DNA of 64,000 nt from the NCBI GenBank assembly GCA_965227295.1, contig OZ245742.1, positions 320,001-384,000 of the forward strand, in the 5' to 3' direction. Position numbers and translations under genes: made by a program. The notes below the pieces were generated by a model. It did not search any database. It was given only the letters and a program-made list of their open reading frames with translations, and had not been told where the DNA came from. The stretch is from Leptonemataceae bacterium (lineage in GTDB: Bacteria > Spirochaetota > Leptospiria > Leptospirales > Leptonemataceae). This document shows positions 47,181 through 52,548 of the stretch, piece by piece; within the stretch, counting starts at the first letter, position 1, and every line of letters begins with the position of its first letter.

Positions 47181-47672
47181 TCACTCCGCGTGCGTCCCCG
47201 TCGGCGCCGGCAATCGCGTCCAGCGCTCCAGCAGAAACACTACAACCATGATCATCGGCACAAGAATCGCGCCGAGAAAGATGGCCCCGACGGTTCCCAG
47301 ATACAACACGCCGTAGAAAATTCCGTCGGGAACGCCGCCGGGTTCCAGGTACTCGGTCAGCAGGATCAACGCGAAGGCCGAAACGTAAGCCGCGCAGAGG
47401 TACAGCGCGAGGGCGATTCCCAGTAACTTTACATAACGATACGTTTGGATCCGCGCCGCAAAATATCCCAGAACGGCGCCCGCGGCAATGCCCGCCACGA
47501 ACGGCGCAAAGAAAAACACGAGCGCCACCGCCTGATACTCCGGATCCTGCGGCCCCATGCCCGCCAGCTGTCCGCCGACCCACGGCAAGAAAAACAGCAA
47601 CGCCAGGCCGCCGCCCAGGAGGGCGCCGCGGATGAGACAACGGTTTCGATGTTCGTTTTCAGGAATGCCCAT
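47181..47672 (-). CDS. Hypothetical membrane protein
   Basis: About four TM segments; ATG at 47672 chosen. Confidence 0.7.
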   Translation of the reverse strand: MGIPENEHRNRCLIRGALLGGGLALLFFLPWVGGQLAGMGPQDPEYQAVALVFFFAPFVAGIAAGAVLGYFAARIQTYRYVKLLGIALALYLCAAYVSAFALILLTEYLEPGGVPDGIFYGVLYLGTVGAIFLGAILVPMIMVVVFLLERWTRLPAPTGTHAE

Positions 47673-47763
47673 ACCCCACTCGTCTGCAATGCTCCGACAT
47701 TCGCGAGCGAAAAAAGATCGCGCGGGCTTGACACGTTTCCCGGACGACGACGAAAATCTCCGT

Positions 47764-49266
47764 GTGTCCCTCGTCCGCATCGGCACTGTCCTCGCGCCGA
47801 TCCTGCTGCTTCTGGCGATCACGTCGTCCCGGAGCGAGTCATCTTCCGTTCACGAACCGTTGATCGGCGCGCGCTTGCTCCTGGACGCGCCGCGGGAAAA
47901 CCCCGCCGCAGTCGAACAACGCGCTTACGAAAACGCGCGAGGCTTGTTGTCCCCGCTCGGGCAGTTTCACTTTCGCGGCCTCCATCATCCGGCGCACCGC
48001 TGCATCTGTAAGTCCGCGCCCACGCTGACACCGAACGGCCGGGCCTTCGTCGGTCCCGGCCCGCCCGCGGATGCTTCGTTGTGTGCGCGAACACCGCCGG
48101 GCGAGCAAAAAGATGAGCATGATGCGCCGAATTGTCTTTCGAACGCCGGCCGCTTTCACTTTAACGAAGAAGGCGACGCTTCCATGCACACGGGGGCGCT
48201 GCTCGCGGCCCTCGCCTGGCGCTACAAAAATCATCCCGACCCCGCGCAACGGCGGGACACGCTAAGTACGATTGGCCGCATATTAAGATACTACGAACTC
48301 TTGCAACGGCACAACGACGGCTGCATCGGCCGGAACTTCGTCGCCGCCGACGCCTACGAACGTTTCGCGCCGCAAAACCGCCACGGCACCGAAAACAGCG
48401 CGAGCAGCGTCCTGGATGATCTTTTCGGCAAGGGCAAGGCCGCAAAGTTCGCAAAACGCTATCGCCGCGTCGAACTGGACGACGCACGGCTTCCGTCGCA
48501 GGATCGCGGAGTGTATTACCTGCGCTACGACGTATCCCTGGACGCCGTCGTGCATTCCGTGGCAGGCCTGCACTGGATCACGCGTTTCACGCCGGCACCG
48601 GAACGCGAACGCGCGCGCAAGGTCCTGGCCGCGCAACTGGAGTACTACGAGCGCCGTGCCTGGCGCATCGCCGAGAACGGAAAGATGTTGCTGCACGGCG
48701 ACCACCGCCCGGATCACATTAATCCCATCGCCACCGCCATTGAGCTGATCCTCAAACATAACGTGCGCGGGGAAACGCCGCAAGCTCGCGATGCGCAACT
48801 GTTACTGATCCGCAACTATCGTACGTACGAGCCGGGCATTCACGGAAAGAAAACCGAACGCCGGCAGTTCAACAACTACATGGCCCTGACGGCCTTCGCG
48901 GCCCTGGCCGATCATCCCGACGCCTCGGTACGCGGACATGCCCGGGCCGGTCTGCTCACCGCCGTGCAGGAAAACGAGGCCGAGCTGAATTACTTCGCAC
49001 TCGCCGTGCGCGCGCAGGTCTTCGGTGAAAACACGCCGCAGTTGCGCCACGATCCCTTTGTCCGGCTGAACGATTATCACAGTTTCTGCGGAATGCTGCG
49101 CTCCCCCGCGCCCGCGTTCTTCGAGCAACGCTTCGGTTATAACTGGTGGGAGAACGATGCGTACGAAGTCGCCCTGCCGTGCACGCAGGTGCCGGGGCTG
49201 CAGGATTTGCATCCGGCCGGTCTCACGGGCAACGAGGCCTATCTCCAGGCCTACTGGTGGTACTGA
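47764..49266 (+). CDS. Exported hypothetical protein, helical (possible alpha/alpha toroid)
   Basis: Signal-like VSLVRIGTVLAPILLLLAITS; GDASMHTGALLAALAWRY; start uncertain. Confidence 0.65.
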   Translation: MSLVRIGTVLAPILLLLAITSSRSESSSVHEPLIGARLLLDAPRENPAAVEQRAYENARGLLSPLGQFHFRGLHHPAHRCICKSAPTLTPNGRAFVGPGPPADASLCARTPPGEQKDEHDAPNCLSNAGRFHFNEEGDASMHTGALLAALAWRYKNHPDPAQRRDTLSTIGRILRYYELLQRHNDGCIGRNFVAADAYERFAPQNRHGTENSASSVLDDLFGKGKAAKFAKRYRRVELDDARLPSQDRGVYYLRYDVSLDAVVHSVAGLHWITRFTPAPERERARKVLAAQLEYYERRAWRIAENGKMLLHGDHRPDHINPIATAIELILKHNVRGETPQARDAQLLLIRNYRTYEPGIHGKKTERRQFNNYMALTAFAALADHPDASVRGHARAGLLTAVQENEAELNYFALAVRAQVFGENTPQLRHDPFVRLNDYHSFCGMLRSPAPAFFEQRFGYNWWENDAYEVALPCTQVPGLQDLHPAGLTGNEAYLQAYWWY

Positions 49267-49283
49267 ACCGTGCCCGCATTGAT

Positions 49284-49311
49284 TTGACAGATTCCGCGAG
49301 ATTTCTAAATT
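49284..49311 (+). promoter_or_regulatory. Sigma70-like promoter
   Basis: TTGACA (49284-49289), 16-nt spacer, TAAATT (49306-49311). Confidence 0.65.
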
Positions 49312-49317
49312 ACGGTC

Positions 49318-49527
49318 ACGCAAAAGGAGGTGGTCCAATGATAAGTGAAAGTTCGATGACCAGCGAGGTGGCTGGGCGGTAAGTCCGGCAACTTTGCAAT
49401 GCATTGAGTGCGCGACGTTGTCGCGGCTTGCTGCAATCCAACCAGACCACCGCCTTCCGTAGTTCTCGGACATTGGTCCCCCGAGGCGCATCGCGCAGTC
49501 GCTACGGAAGGTTCTTCAGTTTTCTTC
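49318..49527 (+). ncRNA. Putative structured RNA/leader carrying a 14-aa ORF (49338-49382, MISESSMTSEVAGR)
   Basis: Promoter; extended SD AAAGGAGGTGGTCCA; internal hairpins; terminal 10-bp stem with T-rich tail; ends are estimates. Confidence 0.55.
49453..49527 (+). terminator. Terminator-like stem with T-rich tail
   Basis: CCTTCCGTAG (49453-49462) / CTACGGAAGG (49502-49511), then TTCTTCAGTTTTCTTCT; large structured loop. Confidence 0.5.
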
Positions 49528-49546
49528 TATAATAAATTATCACAGC

Positions 49547-49795
49547 ATGCTTGAGCTTCGCCCCACCTGCGAGAACTGTAACACGGCGCTGCCGCCGGAC
49601 TCCGCCGACGCTCGCATCTGTAGCTTCGAATGCACGTTTTGCGCAAAGTGCGTCGACGAAATCTTAAACGGCATCTGCCCGAACTGCGGCGGCAACTTCG
49701 CCCCGCGACCCATCCGCCCCCCGGCGGCGCTGCGTCGGCATCCGGCCATCACAAAAGTCACGCACAATCCGTTGAGCGAACGATCACGTCCGTAA
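49547..49795 (+). CDS. DUF1272 domain-containing protein
   Basis: MLELRPTCENC...ARICSFECTFC...CPNCGGNFAPRPIRP; TATAAT at 49528-49533. Confidence 0.92.
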   Translation: MLELRPTCENCNTALPPDSADARICSFECTFCAKCVDEILNGICPNCGGNFAPRPIRPPAALRRHPAITKVTHNPLSERSRP

Positions 49796-49810
49796 CATCG
49801 TCAGACATCC

Positions 49811-50989
49811 ATGCCGTTTCGCATTCTCCTTACCTTCCTGCTCTGCTCCAGTTTGATTCTCGCGTGCAACTACGGCGCGGCCCGCCGCGCGACGGTCGGC
49901 ACGTCCGTGGCACCGCTGGTCTTCGTGCCCGGCCTCATGGGGTCCACGCTCTATGACACCGACGGCGAGCAGCTCTGGCTCACGCCGTCCCACGGCCTCG
50001 GCTGGAGCACGCCGGACCTCGGCCTGCCGCTTACCTGGATGAACGGCGTGCAAAGCGGCCCGCGCCTCGTCTCTCGCGGTTCGGTGCAGGCGGTGCAGAT
50101 CCTGTTCGGCCTCCTCGGCCAGGAAATCTACGCACCGTGGGAACGTGCCGCGGCAGAGTTTCCGAATCGCGAACTGCACGTCTTCGGCTACGACTGGCGC
50201 CGGGACAACAACGAGAACGCCGCCGCCCTGGAAGCTTTCCTGGTAAAACTGCGCGAACGCTACGGCGAACGGAAGATCGGCATCGTCGGCCACAGCATGG
50301 GCGGCATGCTTACCCTGGCCGTATTGAACAAACATCCGGACTGGTTTGATCGAGTGGTGTTCGCCGGCGTTCCGTTTCGCGGCGGCATCGGCCACCTGGA
50401 CAATCTGCGAGACGGCACGCCCATCGGCGCGAATGGGGAGCTGCTGACGCCGCCGGTGCTGTTCAGTCACCCGAGCGTGTTTTCGTTTTACCCGTCCGGC
50501 CAGGCCTGGGAAAACCAGGACACCGTGCTCGACGCAAGCCGCAAACCCATTCCGATAAACTTTTATTCAGGCAAAGTCTGGGAAAAATACGGCTTCGGTC
50601 CGTACGCCCCGGAGAACGCCGACTGGTTCAACGAAACCGCGGAGCAACTCGCGCACTTCGAACAACTCCTGGAACGCGGGCGACTCTTCCGTCGATCCAT
50701 GACACCGCGGCGGAACGTCGACTATCCGCCGGCCCTGGTACTCATGAGCAAGGACCATCCGACCATCGCCCGCATCCAGGTCGAAGAAGGCGCCGGCGCA
50801 AACACCGCCCATTGGCGGCACGATCCGGATCGCGAGCCCGGCGACTCCACCGTGCTGTACGCGGACGCCCTGCCGCCGGAACCGATTCGCTACGCGGTCC
50901 ATCTGACGAAGTACGAGCACTCGTATTTGTTGAACGATCCCGCGGCGCAAGAACGCATCGCGGAGTTTCTGGGCGATGCGCTACAATGA
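49811..50989 (+). CDS. Lipoprotein, LCAT/PGAP1-like alpha/beta hydrolase (lipase/acyltransferase)
   Basis: Lipobox LILAC; FVPGLMGS, YDWRRD, GHSMGG, GDSTV, EHSYL. Confidence 0.88.
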   Translation: MPFRILLTFLLCSSLILACNYGAARRATVGTSVAPLVFVPGLMGSTLYDTDGEQLWLTPSHGLGWSTPDLGLPLTWMNGVQSGPRLVSRGSVQAVQILFGLLGQEIYAPWERAAAEFPNRELHVFGYDWRRDNNENAAALEAFLVKLRERYGERKIGIVGHSMGGMLTLAVLNKHPDWFDRVVFAGVPFRGGIGHLDNLRDGTPIGANGELLTPPVLFSHPSVFSFYPSGQAWENQDTVLDASRKPIPINFYSGKVWEKYGFGPYAPENADWFNETAEQLAHFEQLLERGRLFRRSMTPRRNVDYPPALVLMSKDHPTIARIQVEEGAGANTAHWRHDPDREPGDSTVLYADALPPEPIRYAVHLTKYEHSYLLNDPAAQERIAEFLGDALQ

Positions 50990-51343
50990 AGCGACGGCGT
51001 CATCGACGGTGTCGAAGATGCCGACGGGTTGATGGGTGCCGCCGACGGTAAGCAACTTGCGGATGTAGGCGTTGTCGGTGACGACGCAGAGTTTGCCGCC
51101 GCGTTCTTCGCACTCGCTACCGACGGCGAAGATGGAGCTGATGAACGACGAATCGATGCGCTTGACCTGGCTGCAATCGAGGACGAGGTTCGCGGCGCGA
51201 CCCTTAATCATCCCCGTAACCTTAAAGCGGAAGTCCACGGTCATGTCCATGCGCAACGTGGAATCGGCGAACTTCAGAACGCAGTGGTCGTCGGCGTAGC
51301 TAACGCTGGTCTGCACGGCATTAGAAACCGGCGCCCGCCTCAC
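50981..51343 (-). CDS. STAS domain protein (anti-sigma factor antagonist)
   Basis: LVLDCSQVKRIDSS...RGGKLCVV...IFDTVDDAV; the start may be GTG 51316. Confidence 0.88.
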   Translation of the reverse strand: MRRAPVSNAVQTSVSYADDHCVLKFADSTLRMDMTVDFRFKVTGMIKGRAANLVLDCSQVKRIDSSFISSIFAVGSECEERGGKLCVVTDNAYIRKLLTVGGTHQPVGIFDTVDDAVASL

Positions 51344-51390: not shown

Positions 51391-52548
51391 TCAAGAGCCC
51401 ACGGTATTGCGACCGGCGTTCTTCGCCTGGTAGAGCGCGCGGTCCGCCTTCTCAATGAGCTTCGAGGGCCGCGACAGCAAACCCGGAACAGCGGTGGCCA
51501 GGCCCAGACTGATCGTAACACGTTCGTGGGGAGACTCCGAGTGCGTCTCGGCAAGTTTGTAAACGGCCTCACGCAGACTCTCGGCGATGGTCCGCGCCTG
51601 CTCGCTGTCCACGTCCGGCAGGATCGCCGCAAACTCCTCGCCGCCGTACCGCGCGAGGATGCAACCGTTGTCCGCCACCGTGGCTTCCAGGGCGCCGGCC
51701 ACGGCCCGCAAACAACGGTCCCCGGCCTGGTGTCCGTACGTATCGTTGTACTTCTTGAAGTAGTCCACGTCGATCATCAAGAGCGAGAGCGGCGCATGAC
51801 CGCGCATGGCCTGGCGCCAGGAGATGTCCAGGTAACGATCGAAGAAGCGGCGATTGGGAACGCCGGTGAGTTCGTCGTGAATTGAGATGCTGCGAAAGAT
51901 GATGTTCGCGGTCTTCAGGTCCTCGGTCATGCGACGCAGATCGCCGGCGGTGCTCTTGAGTCGCGCAATCTCCTCGCTGCGGGCCACCGCGGCGTGCATG
52001 CGCGCGGGCAACTCCACGTCGAAGCTCGGTCCGCGGCAAATGAAGTCCGCCGCCCCCGCTTCGAAGGCCCGGATCATTGCCTCGGGATGATTCGGATTGC
52101 CGACGAGAATGACGGGCACGTGGCCGTACTCTTCGCTGCCGGAAATGCGTTCGAGCAATTCCAGCGAGGCCTGAAAGCCGCCGTCTTCTTCGAGATCGAT
52201 CAAAAACAAGACCACGTCTTCCGGCGTCGTCGAATCTTCGGCGTCACTCGTGTAGAAGACCAGTTGCTCGTTTGCTTCGGTGGCGGAAGCGTACTCGACC
52301 CAGGCGATGCGCGCCTGCATGCGCCCGGCATATTCGGATAGCTGCGGAACAAGGCCGCGCTGGCGCGATGAATCCGTGATCAGTAAAACTCTTTTTTGTG
52401 TGCCGGTCTGCACAAGCATGCAATATGAGACGAAAAAGTTTGGATCGCTCTTCAGGGAACGTATGTCCGACAGCGTTTCAGGCGTCATCTCGTTTCTCCT
52501 TTTTGATAAGACGCTTGCGAAGGAGATTCTCCGGTCCATTCTCGTCAC
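51391..52548 (-). CDS. Diguanylate cyclase with receiver-like domain (PleD/WspR-like)
   Basis: DELTGVPNRR, DVDYFKKYNDTYGHQAGD, ARYGGEEF, ADRALYQAKNAGRN; start uncertain. Confidence 0.93.
   Translation of the reverse strand: MTRMDRRISFASVLSKRRNEMTPETLSDIRSLKSDPNFFVSYCMLVQTGTQKRVLLITDSSRQRGLVPQLSEYAGRMQARIAWVEYASATEANEQLVFYTSDAEDSTTPEDVVLFLIDLEEDGGFQASLELLERISGSEEYGHVPVILVGNPNHPEAMIRAFEAGAADFICRGPSFDVELPARMHAAVARSEEIARLKSTAGDLRRMTEDLKTANIIFRSISIHDELTGVPNRRFFDRYLDISWRQAMRGHAPLSLLMIDVDYFKKYNDTYGHQAGDRCLRAVAGALEATVADNGCILARYGGEEFAAILPDVDSEQARTIAESLREAVYKLAETHSESPHERVTISLGLATAVPGLLSRPSKLIEKADRALYQAKNAGRNTVGS

Follow-up and report, generated by a model that had tools for sequence, protein, structure and literature searches.

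A small structured RNA gene lies at positions 49284 to 49527, on the plus strand, of a 64,000-nucleotide (nt) stretch of the genome of a Leptonemataceae bacterium of the order Leptospirales (GenBank assembly GCA_965227295.1, contig OZ245742.1, positions 320,001 to 384,000; henceforth referred to as the window). The gene is real and free-standing, is built to bind the ribosome, carries a tiny open reading frame (ORF) and belongs to a family that has already been catalogued, Ms_IGR-5 (Rfam RF02471). A preliminary description of this DNA, made from the sequence alone, had recognised an RNA with an anti-16S site and a short ORF and had held that no named family fitted it. The latter claim was overturned, since RF02471 matches above its gathering score and the rre ('ribosome-regulated expression') small mRNAs share the design, and with a match to a described Rfam family the claim of novelty falls. 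We regard it as probable that the product is a structured small mRNA of ~205 nt, predicted to run from about 49318 to 49527 on the plus strand, that it is a member of this family and that a ribosome refolds it in the manner set out below; this judgement covers the three points jointly.

The ribosome-docking site and the Rfam family

An extended Shine-Dalgarno (SD) sequence (SD1; AAAGGAGGTGGTCCA, 49323 to 49337, plus strand) begins 5 nt from the predicted 5' end of the RNA, twelve bases beyond the promoter, and is complementary over 15 nt to the 3' tail of 16S rRNA. The preliminary description had drawn this complementarity against the canonical 16S end, and it held against the 3' end of the single 16S gene of this genome (...GGCTGGATCACCTCCTTT), with which SD1 forms 14 Watson-Crick pairs and one G-U pair at -26.0 kcal/mol. 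SD1 is the only 15-mer with 14 Watson-Crick matches to the 16S tail on either strand of the 5.94-Mb genome (five others have 13), and the sole better complement is the antisense strand of the 16S gene itself. The second SD-like tract that had been placed inside the ORF is likewise present (SD2; GAGGTGGCTGG, 49365 to 49375, plus strand), is invariant in our alignments A1 and A2 and pairs with the 16S tail at -11.8 kcal/mol. Further downstream, the strand CCAGACCACCGCCTT (49442 to 49456) is able, as proposed, to pair either with the SD region (-19.6 kcal/mol) or with the in-ORF tract (-16.9 kcal/mol), and is adjacent to, or overlaps with, the left arm of a terminal stem. Overall, the whole RNA looks as if it were assembled from SD-like and anti-SD-like modules. 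Two observations were made in relatives, in genera of the sister family that contains Leptospira: in genus g26 (loci L193 to L196) the strand beyond helix P2 (described below) has the sequence CAUCACC-GA-CCUCCUUUAG, in which 2 inserted nt separate the two halves of the 16S 3' tail, and genus g22 has a perfect SD, CAGGAGGUU, as the right arm of its terminal stem.

The model RF02471, which Rfam labels 'Actinobacteria sRNA' (small RNA), matches positions 49316 to 49519 at 45.4 bits against a gathering score of 45, over model positions 1 to 184 of 184 (E = 5.1e-7 for the whole window), and is the sole Rfam match in the 64-kb window. Weak matches to RAGATH-32 (12.9 bits vs 41.8), Ms_AS-4 (15.7 vs 50) and Afu_513 (9.3 vs 48) were rejected. 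Like Ms_IGR-5, the RNA has at its 5' end an extended SD and a short ORF, in which GAGGUGGCUG occurs and the stop codon lies 15 nt past the start of that motif; next come, in order, a variable hairpin, AAUCC, a CAG..CACC strand that forms pairs with the in-ORF tract, and a terminal stem with a hairpin inside it. It departs from Ms_IGR-5 in its host, which belongs to the Leptospirales (Spirochaetota) and not to the Actinomycetota named by the label, and in its 3' strand, CAGACCACC here versus CAGUCACC in Ms_IGR-5; moreover, the start spacing is 7 and the ORF has 14 codons, compared with a spacing of mostly 10-12 and a mode of 12 codons in a pattern-selected, mainly actinobacterial set (see below). 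IGR-5 of M. smegmatis is ncMSMEG15794c, and the papers that mention the RNA, in the portions available, call it validated but uncharacterised. These portions report that RNA sequencing validated Ms_IGR-5 in S. lividans TK24 and that an sRNA transcription unit of S. avermitilis corresponds to it (PMC8079986, PMC8780764), that it is capped with nicotinamide adenine dinucleotide (NAD) in M. smegmatis (bioRxiv 10.1101/2021.12.14.472595) and that it carries ribosome footprints (ribosome profiling, Ribo-seq) in M. abscessus and M. smegmatis (PMC4974804). None of the papers found to name Ms_IGR-5 or IGR-5 assigns it a function.

Distribution across bacteria and the short reading frame

A search of 41 relatives with RF02471 returned 12 matches at E <= 0.01, eleven of which look real; a match at locus L013 (24.9 bits) was dropped as coding-like and without SD, and a second match in the window's own genome (L002, E = 0.9) is a false positive. 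An exact pattern (GGAGGTGRTC, 20-60 nt, GAGGTGGCTG) was present in 55 of 401 sampled genomes of the phylum, all but one of them in the window's order, with a single match for the reversed-pattern control; within the window's family it was found in 8 of 42 genomes. We also built a covariance model, R1, from 18 sequences of the order, and at a threshold of E <= 0.001 it found exactly one copy in each of 108 positives among 151 genomes of the order. In the sister family that contains Leptospira, 99 of 109 genomes were positive (g22, 22/22; g23, 24/24; g24, 38/39; g26, 6/6; g27, 5/5), and in the window's own family 8 of 41 besides the window's genome. Genus g23 gave no match to the exact pattern (0/20), because GGTGGTT replaces GGTGRTC there, and was positive throughout with R1. 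The stretch from the SD to the in-ORF motif in Leptospira jelokensis (L065) is the same as in genus g24. Run over one genome per species, the pattern returned at least 120 stretches, and those listed include 88 from Actinomycetota, 24 from Acidobacteriota, 2 from Latescibacterota and 1 each from Leptospira, Heliobacteriaceae, Syntrophobacter, Chloroflexota, Eisenbacteria and Planctomycetota (taxa by record title; the figures indicate presence, not proportions). The Planctomycetota match (L039) is false, having neither promoter nor start, and of seven short matches in a plasmid collection (blastn, E <= 10) the two unannotated ones, from Deinococcus and Kitasatospora, lack SD and ORF and were set down to chance. 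In its available part, a survey of Leptospira sRNAs (PMC5243855) gives no Rfam match for this RNA. The comparisons across genomes that the preliminary description had called for show that homologues keep the SD, the ORF and the pairing, and that the peptide varies.

As had been described, an ATG directly after the SD opens a short ORF: it lies at 49338, abutting the 16S complement (spacing 7), and 14 codons (MISESSMTSEVAGR) lead to a TAA ending at 49382 (49338 to 49382, plus strand), with frame, start and stop conserved. Conservation of the frame was counted in 161 pattern matches that reduce to 140 distinct cores, the pattern itself specifying no start or stop codon. In 132 of the 140 cores the distance from the start of the GAGGTGGCTG motif to a stop codon is exactly 15 nt, and in 133 of them an ATG, GTG or TTG 0-14 nt past the SD is open and in frame with the fixed stop, as compared with 18 and 12 in the other frames. 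The seven exceptions are one false match, four Acidimicrobiia with CTG in the same frame, and two Latescibacterota (L080 and L122) in which an ATG-to-TAG ORF in a shifted frame gives a different peptide; at a metagenome locus (L277) the motif is likewise read in another frame. ORF lengths in this pattern-selected set are 11-23 codons (mode 12) and SD-to-start spacings 5-17 nt, and 20 further sequences obtained with R1, outside the pattern selection, keep an ORF in every case (20/20; 14-21 codons). At L202 (genus g24) an insertion past the in-ORF tract moves the stop from +15 to +24 and gives 21 codons, and the ORF still closes in the helix region.

Judged by these sequence comparisons, what is conserved is the reading frame, not the peptide. 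The peptide is hydrophilic, with no membrane-spanning stretch in its 14 residues, and its N-terminal half, which has no sequence in common with those of relatives, here uses rare A/U-ending codons (AUA, 4% of Ile codons; AGU, 10% of Ser codons). The C-termini in the order follow T-x-E-V-A-x-R/Q (EVAGR here). If the locus were a micropeptide gene, the 14-residue peptide with its C-terminal T-x-E-V-A-x-R would be the functional product and the RNA structure would tune its synthesis; the conserved ORF, start and stop agree with this, as do the recurrence of T[GSC]EVA[GE][RQ] across the order, which resembles the frame read from the Rfam actinobacterial consensus, and the conservation of the RreB and RreR peptides within their clades, as given in the available part of the rre study (Hahn 2016, RNA Biol 14:1353, PMC5711450). 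We nevertheless hold a micropeptide gene to be unlikely. The tract that encodes the conserved residues, GAGGTGGCT, shows no variation in the alignment of the order even at synonymous sites (GAG GTG GCT are fixed at their third positions, and GCT accounts for only 7% of the Ala codons of this genome) and also serves as the 5' strand of a covarying helix; a changed helix goes with a changed peptide, as in genus g26, whose tract is GAGGTGACTCTG and whose peptide ends in EVTLL. Furthermore, L080, L122 and L277 read the motif in other frames, the N-terminal half is not conserved, and synthetic RreB and RreR are unstructured, with no phenotype upon putative overproduction (PMC5711450). We infer that the working part is the encounter between RNA and ribosome rather than the peptide.

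The type I toxin-like layout that had been suggested, an mRNA with an occluded SD, is scarcely credible. In some toxin mRNAs the SD is masked by long-range pairing, and the fold predicted here masks the SD in the same way. However, MISESSMTSEVAGR is a short, hydrophilic, non-conserved peptide that does not span a membrane, the gene is single-copy and near-universal in one family, no minus-strand promoter-like site occurs in 48800-50000, and putative overproduction of the RreB peptide from a translatable truncated leader left growth unaffected (PMC5711450).

Conserved pairing and a predicted two-state fold

The minimum-energy fold of the RNA has a z of -3.44, which 1 of 200 shuffles equals, and contains two of the internal hairpins noted previously, CGCGAC/GTCGCG and CTCGG/CCGAG. 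RNAalifold and direct pair counts revealed a helix, P2, which joins the in-ORF GGUGG/CUGR to YCAG-A-CCACC, and its extension P2b, which runs through the stop codon and closes a variable hairpin. In the window, P2 pairs 49367-49375 with CCAGACCACC at 49442-49451, an anti-SD-like strand that can alternatively pair with SD1, and P2b pairs 49376-49385, which includes the stop codon, with 49425-49434 (all on the plus strand, as are the features that follow); the hairpin region between the strands of P2b (49386-49424) differs in length and sequence among relatives. In 18 distinct sequences 92.3% of the P2/P2b cells are paired, compared with 86.6 +/- 0.9% in shuffles, of which 0 of 500 reach the observed value, and 24 cells show double changes, compared with 8.4 in shuffles, although such shuffle tests for pairing are inflated by kinship among the sequences; slid partners are 22-48% paired. 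Covarying pairs of P2b include AU in 8 sequences and GC in 8. Genus g26 carries a compensatory set (GGUGA:UCACC and CUCU:AGAG) with three compensating changes relative to the window and is, at the level of sequence, an independent confirmation of P2/P2b. As read from these pair counts, the covarying P2/P2b holds the final five codons together with the stop codon in a pairing with the downstream anti-SD-like strand. The terminal stem is 12 bp long, between the left arm at 49452-49463 (anti-SD-like CCUUCC) and the right arm at 49501-49512 (SD-like GGAAGG), shows compensatory changes at 8 of 10 predicted pairs and is followed by a U-rich tail.

Between these helices lie conserved stretches that are drawn unpaired. 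AAUCCAA, between P2b and P2 (49435-49441), is near-invariant in A1 and A2, and CAAUCC also occurs in acidobacterial, Heliobacteriaceae and Rfam actinobacterial forms. When the 18 sequences are folded singly, UGGUC occupies a hairpin loop in most of them, beside a second small hairpin and an unpaired GCAGUCG; in the window these are the loop of hairpin P4 (49474-49478 in 49465-49485), hairpin P5 with GCGC/GCGC (49486-49496, where relatives have hairpins of variable size) and the junction at 49495-49501, which is invariant or nearly so in A1 and A3. The UGGUC loop can pair with an in-ORF GAC(C/U), here within GACCAG at 49358-49363: among 55 distinct sequences, 43 have C-G as the fourth pair, 9 have U-G, 3 have U-A and none has a mismatch there, and on these counts a pseudoknot between loop and ORF is likely. 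The near-invariance of AAUCCAA and UGGUC, both drawn unpaired, would also suit a trans-acting sRNA that uses one of them as its seed for pairing with other mRNAs, with the SD and ORF incidental or acting only as a stability element. This is quite unlikely, given that the UGGUC loop has a partner within the RNA that varies in step with it and that a seed leaves unexplained the genome's best 16S complement, the canonical start spacing and an ORF that keeps its frame across phyla.

The ribosome-docking mRNA is predicted to adopt two states of nearly equal energy. When P2 was forced the window RNA folded at -85.1 kcal/mol, and when the helix that masks the SD (GGUGGUC:GACCACC, extendable to 11 of 12 pairs) was forced it folded at -84.8 kcal/mol. 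With the SD kept single-stranded, as if held by a 30S subunit, constrained folding gave the P2 state, and with the 3' end of the ORF and 13 nt beyond it kept single-stranded, as under a terminating ribosome, the SD paired with GACCACC and was masked. Between 6 and 10 of the 10 nt of the SD core are paired in the minimum-energy fold of all 27 representatives of the order (27/27), and opening the core costs a median of 8.2 kcal/mol as compared with the -26 gained on the 16S tail. These results support the earlier suggestion of a ribosome-binding RNA with a short conserved ORF and an SD masked, as predicted, by the fold.

On this basis, the free RNA would mask its own SD. A 30S subunit would win the SD, since the energy gained on the 16S tail (-26 kcal/mol) exceeds the opening cost (about 8 kcal/mol), and would dock at the start codon with the loop-ORF contact and P2 ahead of it. 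In translating the 14 codons, the docked ribosome would unwind first the loop-ORF contact and then P2/P2b, which would free CCAGACCACC to pair with the vacated SD behind the ribosome; following termination, P2 would re-form. The passage of a ribosome would in this way flip the RNA between two nearly isoenergetic states and limit reloading. The output may be the turnover of the RNA itself, the exposure of AAUCCAA and UGGUC, or a read-out of free 30S subunits.

Several points weigh against this account. The margin of the RF02471 match is only 0.4 bits and relatives score 23-41 bits, and the Rfam consensus structure draws the 5' hairpin differently and lacks the helix that joins the in-ORF tract to the 3' strand. 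The SD:anti-SD helix is 88.9% paired across the 18 sequences, the same as in every shuffle, and covariation cannot support it because its SD side, fixed by rRNA, never varies. The folds of the representatives used crude 3' ends and no shuffle control, and the energies are in silico. For the loop-ORF pseudoknot, the U-A cases come from one genus, support at the flanking positions is weak and the observed pairing is equalled in 16 of 2000 shuffles. The transcript, both of its ends and its translation are predictions from the sequence. In the window's own family the RNA is dispensable, as its presence in only 8 of 41 genomes indicates. Lastly, 20-fold overproduction of rreB in B. japonicum left growth unchanged and ribosomes far outnumber that RNA (PMC5711450, available part), which argues against a role in simple titration. 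Having weighed these points, we still consider membership of the family together with refolding actuated by the ribosome, as described, to be the likely explanation.

Genomic context and related small mRNAs

The near-consensus promoter of the preliminary description is present: a -35 box TTGACA (49284-49289) and a -10 box TAAATT (49306-49311), separated by 16 nt, match the consensus at 10 of 12 positions and, in a promoter scan, form the sole promoter-like site in 48800-50000 (shuffle mean 0.3); relatives have a TTGAC-type box equally placed. Transcription would start at the A of a conserved CAC (49318), as judged by the distance from the -10 box and the conserved 5' leader CACGCAAAAGG. The U-rich tail (49512-49527), read from the letters and also U-rich at the end in relatives, is the presumed 3' end, although a simple terminator scan called no terminator there. 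A Pfam scan places a gene for an unknown protein upstream (the large ORF at 47557-49266, which has no Pfam family at E <= 0.001 in the last 482 residues scanned) and DUF1272 followed by an alpha/beta hydrolase downstream. No flanking gene is common to the nine loci scanned against Pfam: elsewhere among them we found Cas6; a methyltransferase with a convergent flavin monooxygenase; an ABC-F protein with LTXXQ/sigma factor; a beta-lactamase-fold protein; a major facilitator superfamily transporter with a patatin; and unknowns. TetR and DUF6242-like flanks both occur in other species of the window's own genus, so that the context differs even within the genus, and in one relative (G007) the gene downstream of the RNA is convergent. 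Since the flanking genes are unrelated between genera, the RNA is a stand-alone gene and not the leader of a particular gene; together with its own conserved promoter and terminal stem, this bears out the standalone transcript proposed earlier. A conserved link to lipases (the hydrolase downstream here, the patatin in Leptospira) was considered and dropped, as other genera differ. Further downstream, on the minus strand, the translation of 50981-51343 resembles, by eye, a STAS-type anti-sigma antagonist and that of 51391-52548 a response-regulator/GGDEF protein (RYGGEEF).

The preliminary description had also raised a translation-coupled attenuator of the next gene. The DUF1272 gene (49547-49795) has its ATG only 20 nt beyond the U-tail, and a TATAAT at 49528-49533, at the U-rich tail and 13 nt upstream of that ATG, is accompanied by no -35 box and was not called as a promoter by the scan; the gene is either nearly leaderless or dependent on read-through from the small RNA. 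As a leader of the DUF1272 and hydrolase genes, the RNA would pair its unoccupied SD with CCAGACCACCGCCUU, strip the left arm from the terminal stem and so allow read-through, and the 11 of 12 pairs (-19.6 kcal/mol) that the SD makes with a strand overlapping that arm are in keeping with this, as are the closeness of DUF1272, for which no promoter was called, and the co-oriented gene that lies within roughly 20-400 nt downstream in most relatives. An attenuator is very improbable all the same, because only 4-5 of the 12 pairs of the terminal stem would be lost and the nine loci have no conserved downstream gene: those genes are unrelated by genus (DUF1272, Cas6, LTXXQ/sigma factor, patatin, unknowns), one is convergent, and the context differs already within the window's genus. 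The context of rre genes is likewise not conserved outside the Bradyrhizobiaceae (PMC5711450, available part).

The small mRNA of the window resembles the rre RNAs in its design. According to the available part of the rre study (PMC5711450), the small mRNA rreB of Bradyrhizobiaceae is 165 nt long, and in it 17 nt complementary to the 16S tail run up to the start codon of a 14-codon ORF; rreB and rreR in general have a complement of 16-17 nt, an ORF of 14 or 18 codons and their own promoter and terminator. In the same account most of the rreB complement is predicted to be base-paired, rreB adjoins tRNA-Gly, it co-sediments with 30S subunits and is weakly translated, and its half-life goes up from 10 to 37 min when GUG is changed to UAG; analogues are given for four alphaproteobacterial orders and the function is called elusive. 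By analogy, these experiments fit a ribosome-centred life cycle. Among the matches listed in a literature search on rreB, all besides Hahn 2016 concern eukaryotic RREB or unrelated topics. Like the rre RNAs, the window RNA is a free-standing small transcript, here a predicted one, with its own promoter and terminal stem, an unconserved context, an SD predicted to be masked and a 14-codon ORF that starts at the end of the 16S complement; unlike rreB and rreR, it has a complement of 15 nt with one G-U pair and starts with ATG, not GTG. By the rre criterion of a complement of >= 16 nt, there are 15 contiguous pairs here, with one further A-U pair if the mature 16S tail retains a gene-encoded T. 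Binding to 30S subunits, weak translation and start-codon-dependent decay are properties of rreB, to which the window RNA is likened by sequence design only. The Caulobacter sRNA CC2171 (RF01867) has a consensus that starts cAAcaAucGAAAGGAGGUGAUCCAGUG, which is a short leader, an extended SD and the start codon GUG; membership of this family was rejected, as the window RNA scores 11.1 bits vs a cut-off of 75 and aligns at the SD and one hairpin only.

A metagenome scan for the CC2171/rre-type 5' end (GAAAGGAGGTGATCCAGTG) returned at least 120 stretches, of which 106 were distinct with full flanks, and in 105 of the 106 GTG opens an ORF of 12-31 codons. The types include 14 codons (VSCxKRCHLAGIAR), 18 codons (VSRxxLE...), 20-25 codons (VSHCLSPRS...) and a further type of 13-14 codons with an in-ORF GAGGUG tract and a matching 3' strand. 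Of the first 100 of these at least 120 loci, 10 were matched end to end at E <= 1e-4 by R1, which was built from Leptospirales sequences only; the other 66 R1 matches among the 100 cover the SD region only. Among 12 loci scanned against Rfam, two R1-positive ones pass RF02471 (60.5 and 53.5 bits), and the rreB-like and rreR-like loci, which were so assigned by peptide length, plus a neighbouring tRNA for rreB, with no named rreB sequence compared, have no match; two loci of the 25-codon type (types given as 20-25 or 22-25 codons) pass CC2171 (88.8 and 84.9 bits). The rreB-like and rreR-like loci match R1 nowhere but in the SD region, at about 15 bits, and differ in the placement of the anti-SD-like strand. 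Judged by these model matches, some RNAs with a textbook rre 5' end truly belong to the Ms_IGR-5 fold, and rreB, rreR and CC2171 share the design of the window RNA with no detectable common fold.

Some individual loci were also inspected. The 18-codon rreR-like L290, L319, L270 and similar loci have near-perfect copies of the 16S tail downstream (for example, CAUCACCUCCU), and the self-complement of rreR-like loci to their own SD is far longer than in the window RNA. The rreB-like L234 (peptide VSCFKRCHLAGIAR) lies about 150 nt from a tRNA gene, matching the published position of rreB, and its ORF contains an anti-SD-like CACCUCGCUGG.

A broader reading concerns 6S RNA. Like the window RNA, it mimics the substrate of a core machine, in its case RNA polymerase, and for both RNAs synthesis on the RNA itself could set off a change of fold that brings the engagement to an end. 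The Leptospirales RNA might form, together with Ms_IGR-5, the rre small mRNAs and CC2171, one ancient pan-bacterial class of ribosome-docking mini-mRNAs that act for the ribosome as 6S RNA acts for RNA polymerase. Such an RNA would capture idle 30S or 70S particles at a super-strong SD placed before a structured roadblock and release them only once the mini-ORF can be translated; translation of the mini-ORF would refold the RNA and mask the SD, so that the RNA would report or buffer free-ribosome and translation capacity. Taken as a whole, we find this broader reading doubtful. The comparison with 6S RNA is an analogy of logic only, since 6S RNA binds RNA polymerase and not the ribosome and has no relation in sequence or fold, and there is no Rfam 6S match in the window.

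Elsewhere in the genome (G000:C1, outside the window) two repeated strings were seen. The string ATGG-GAAGGG-TTGATTTGGCTACGG occurs at no fewer than 11 places (for example, at 2836669, 2836989, 2837317, 3143312 and, on the minus strand, 3143641) and may be a multi-copy element or a gene start, and a GC-rich palindrome, GGGGGAGC-TTCG-GCTCCCCC, recurs (for example, at 255129, 474753, 2835510, 3040695 and 3342858) and looks like a hairpin repeat of the repetitive extragenic palindrome (REP) kind.

The kind of RNA described here is already known, from the Rfam family and from the rre study in its available part (PMC5711450). The present analysis adds its Leptospirales members, near-universal in the family that contains Leptospira, the covariation of P2/P2b, the compensatory set of genus g26, the two-state energetics and the bridge from rre-type 5' ends to the Ms_IGR-5 fold. 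Whereas the Rfam label reads 'Actinobacteria sRNA' and rre has been described only for Alphaproteobacteria, the window RNA is a single-copy gene of the Leptospirales. Its broad retention, the strongest ribosome-binding site of the genome and a reading frame indifferent to its peptide point to an undescribed form of ribosome-RNA sensing.

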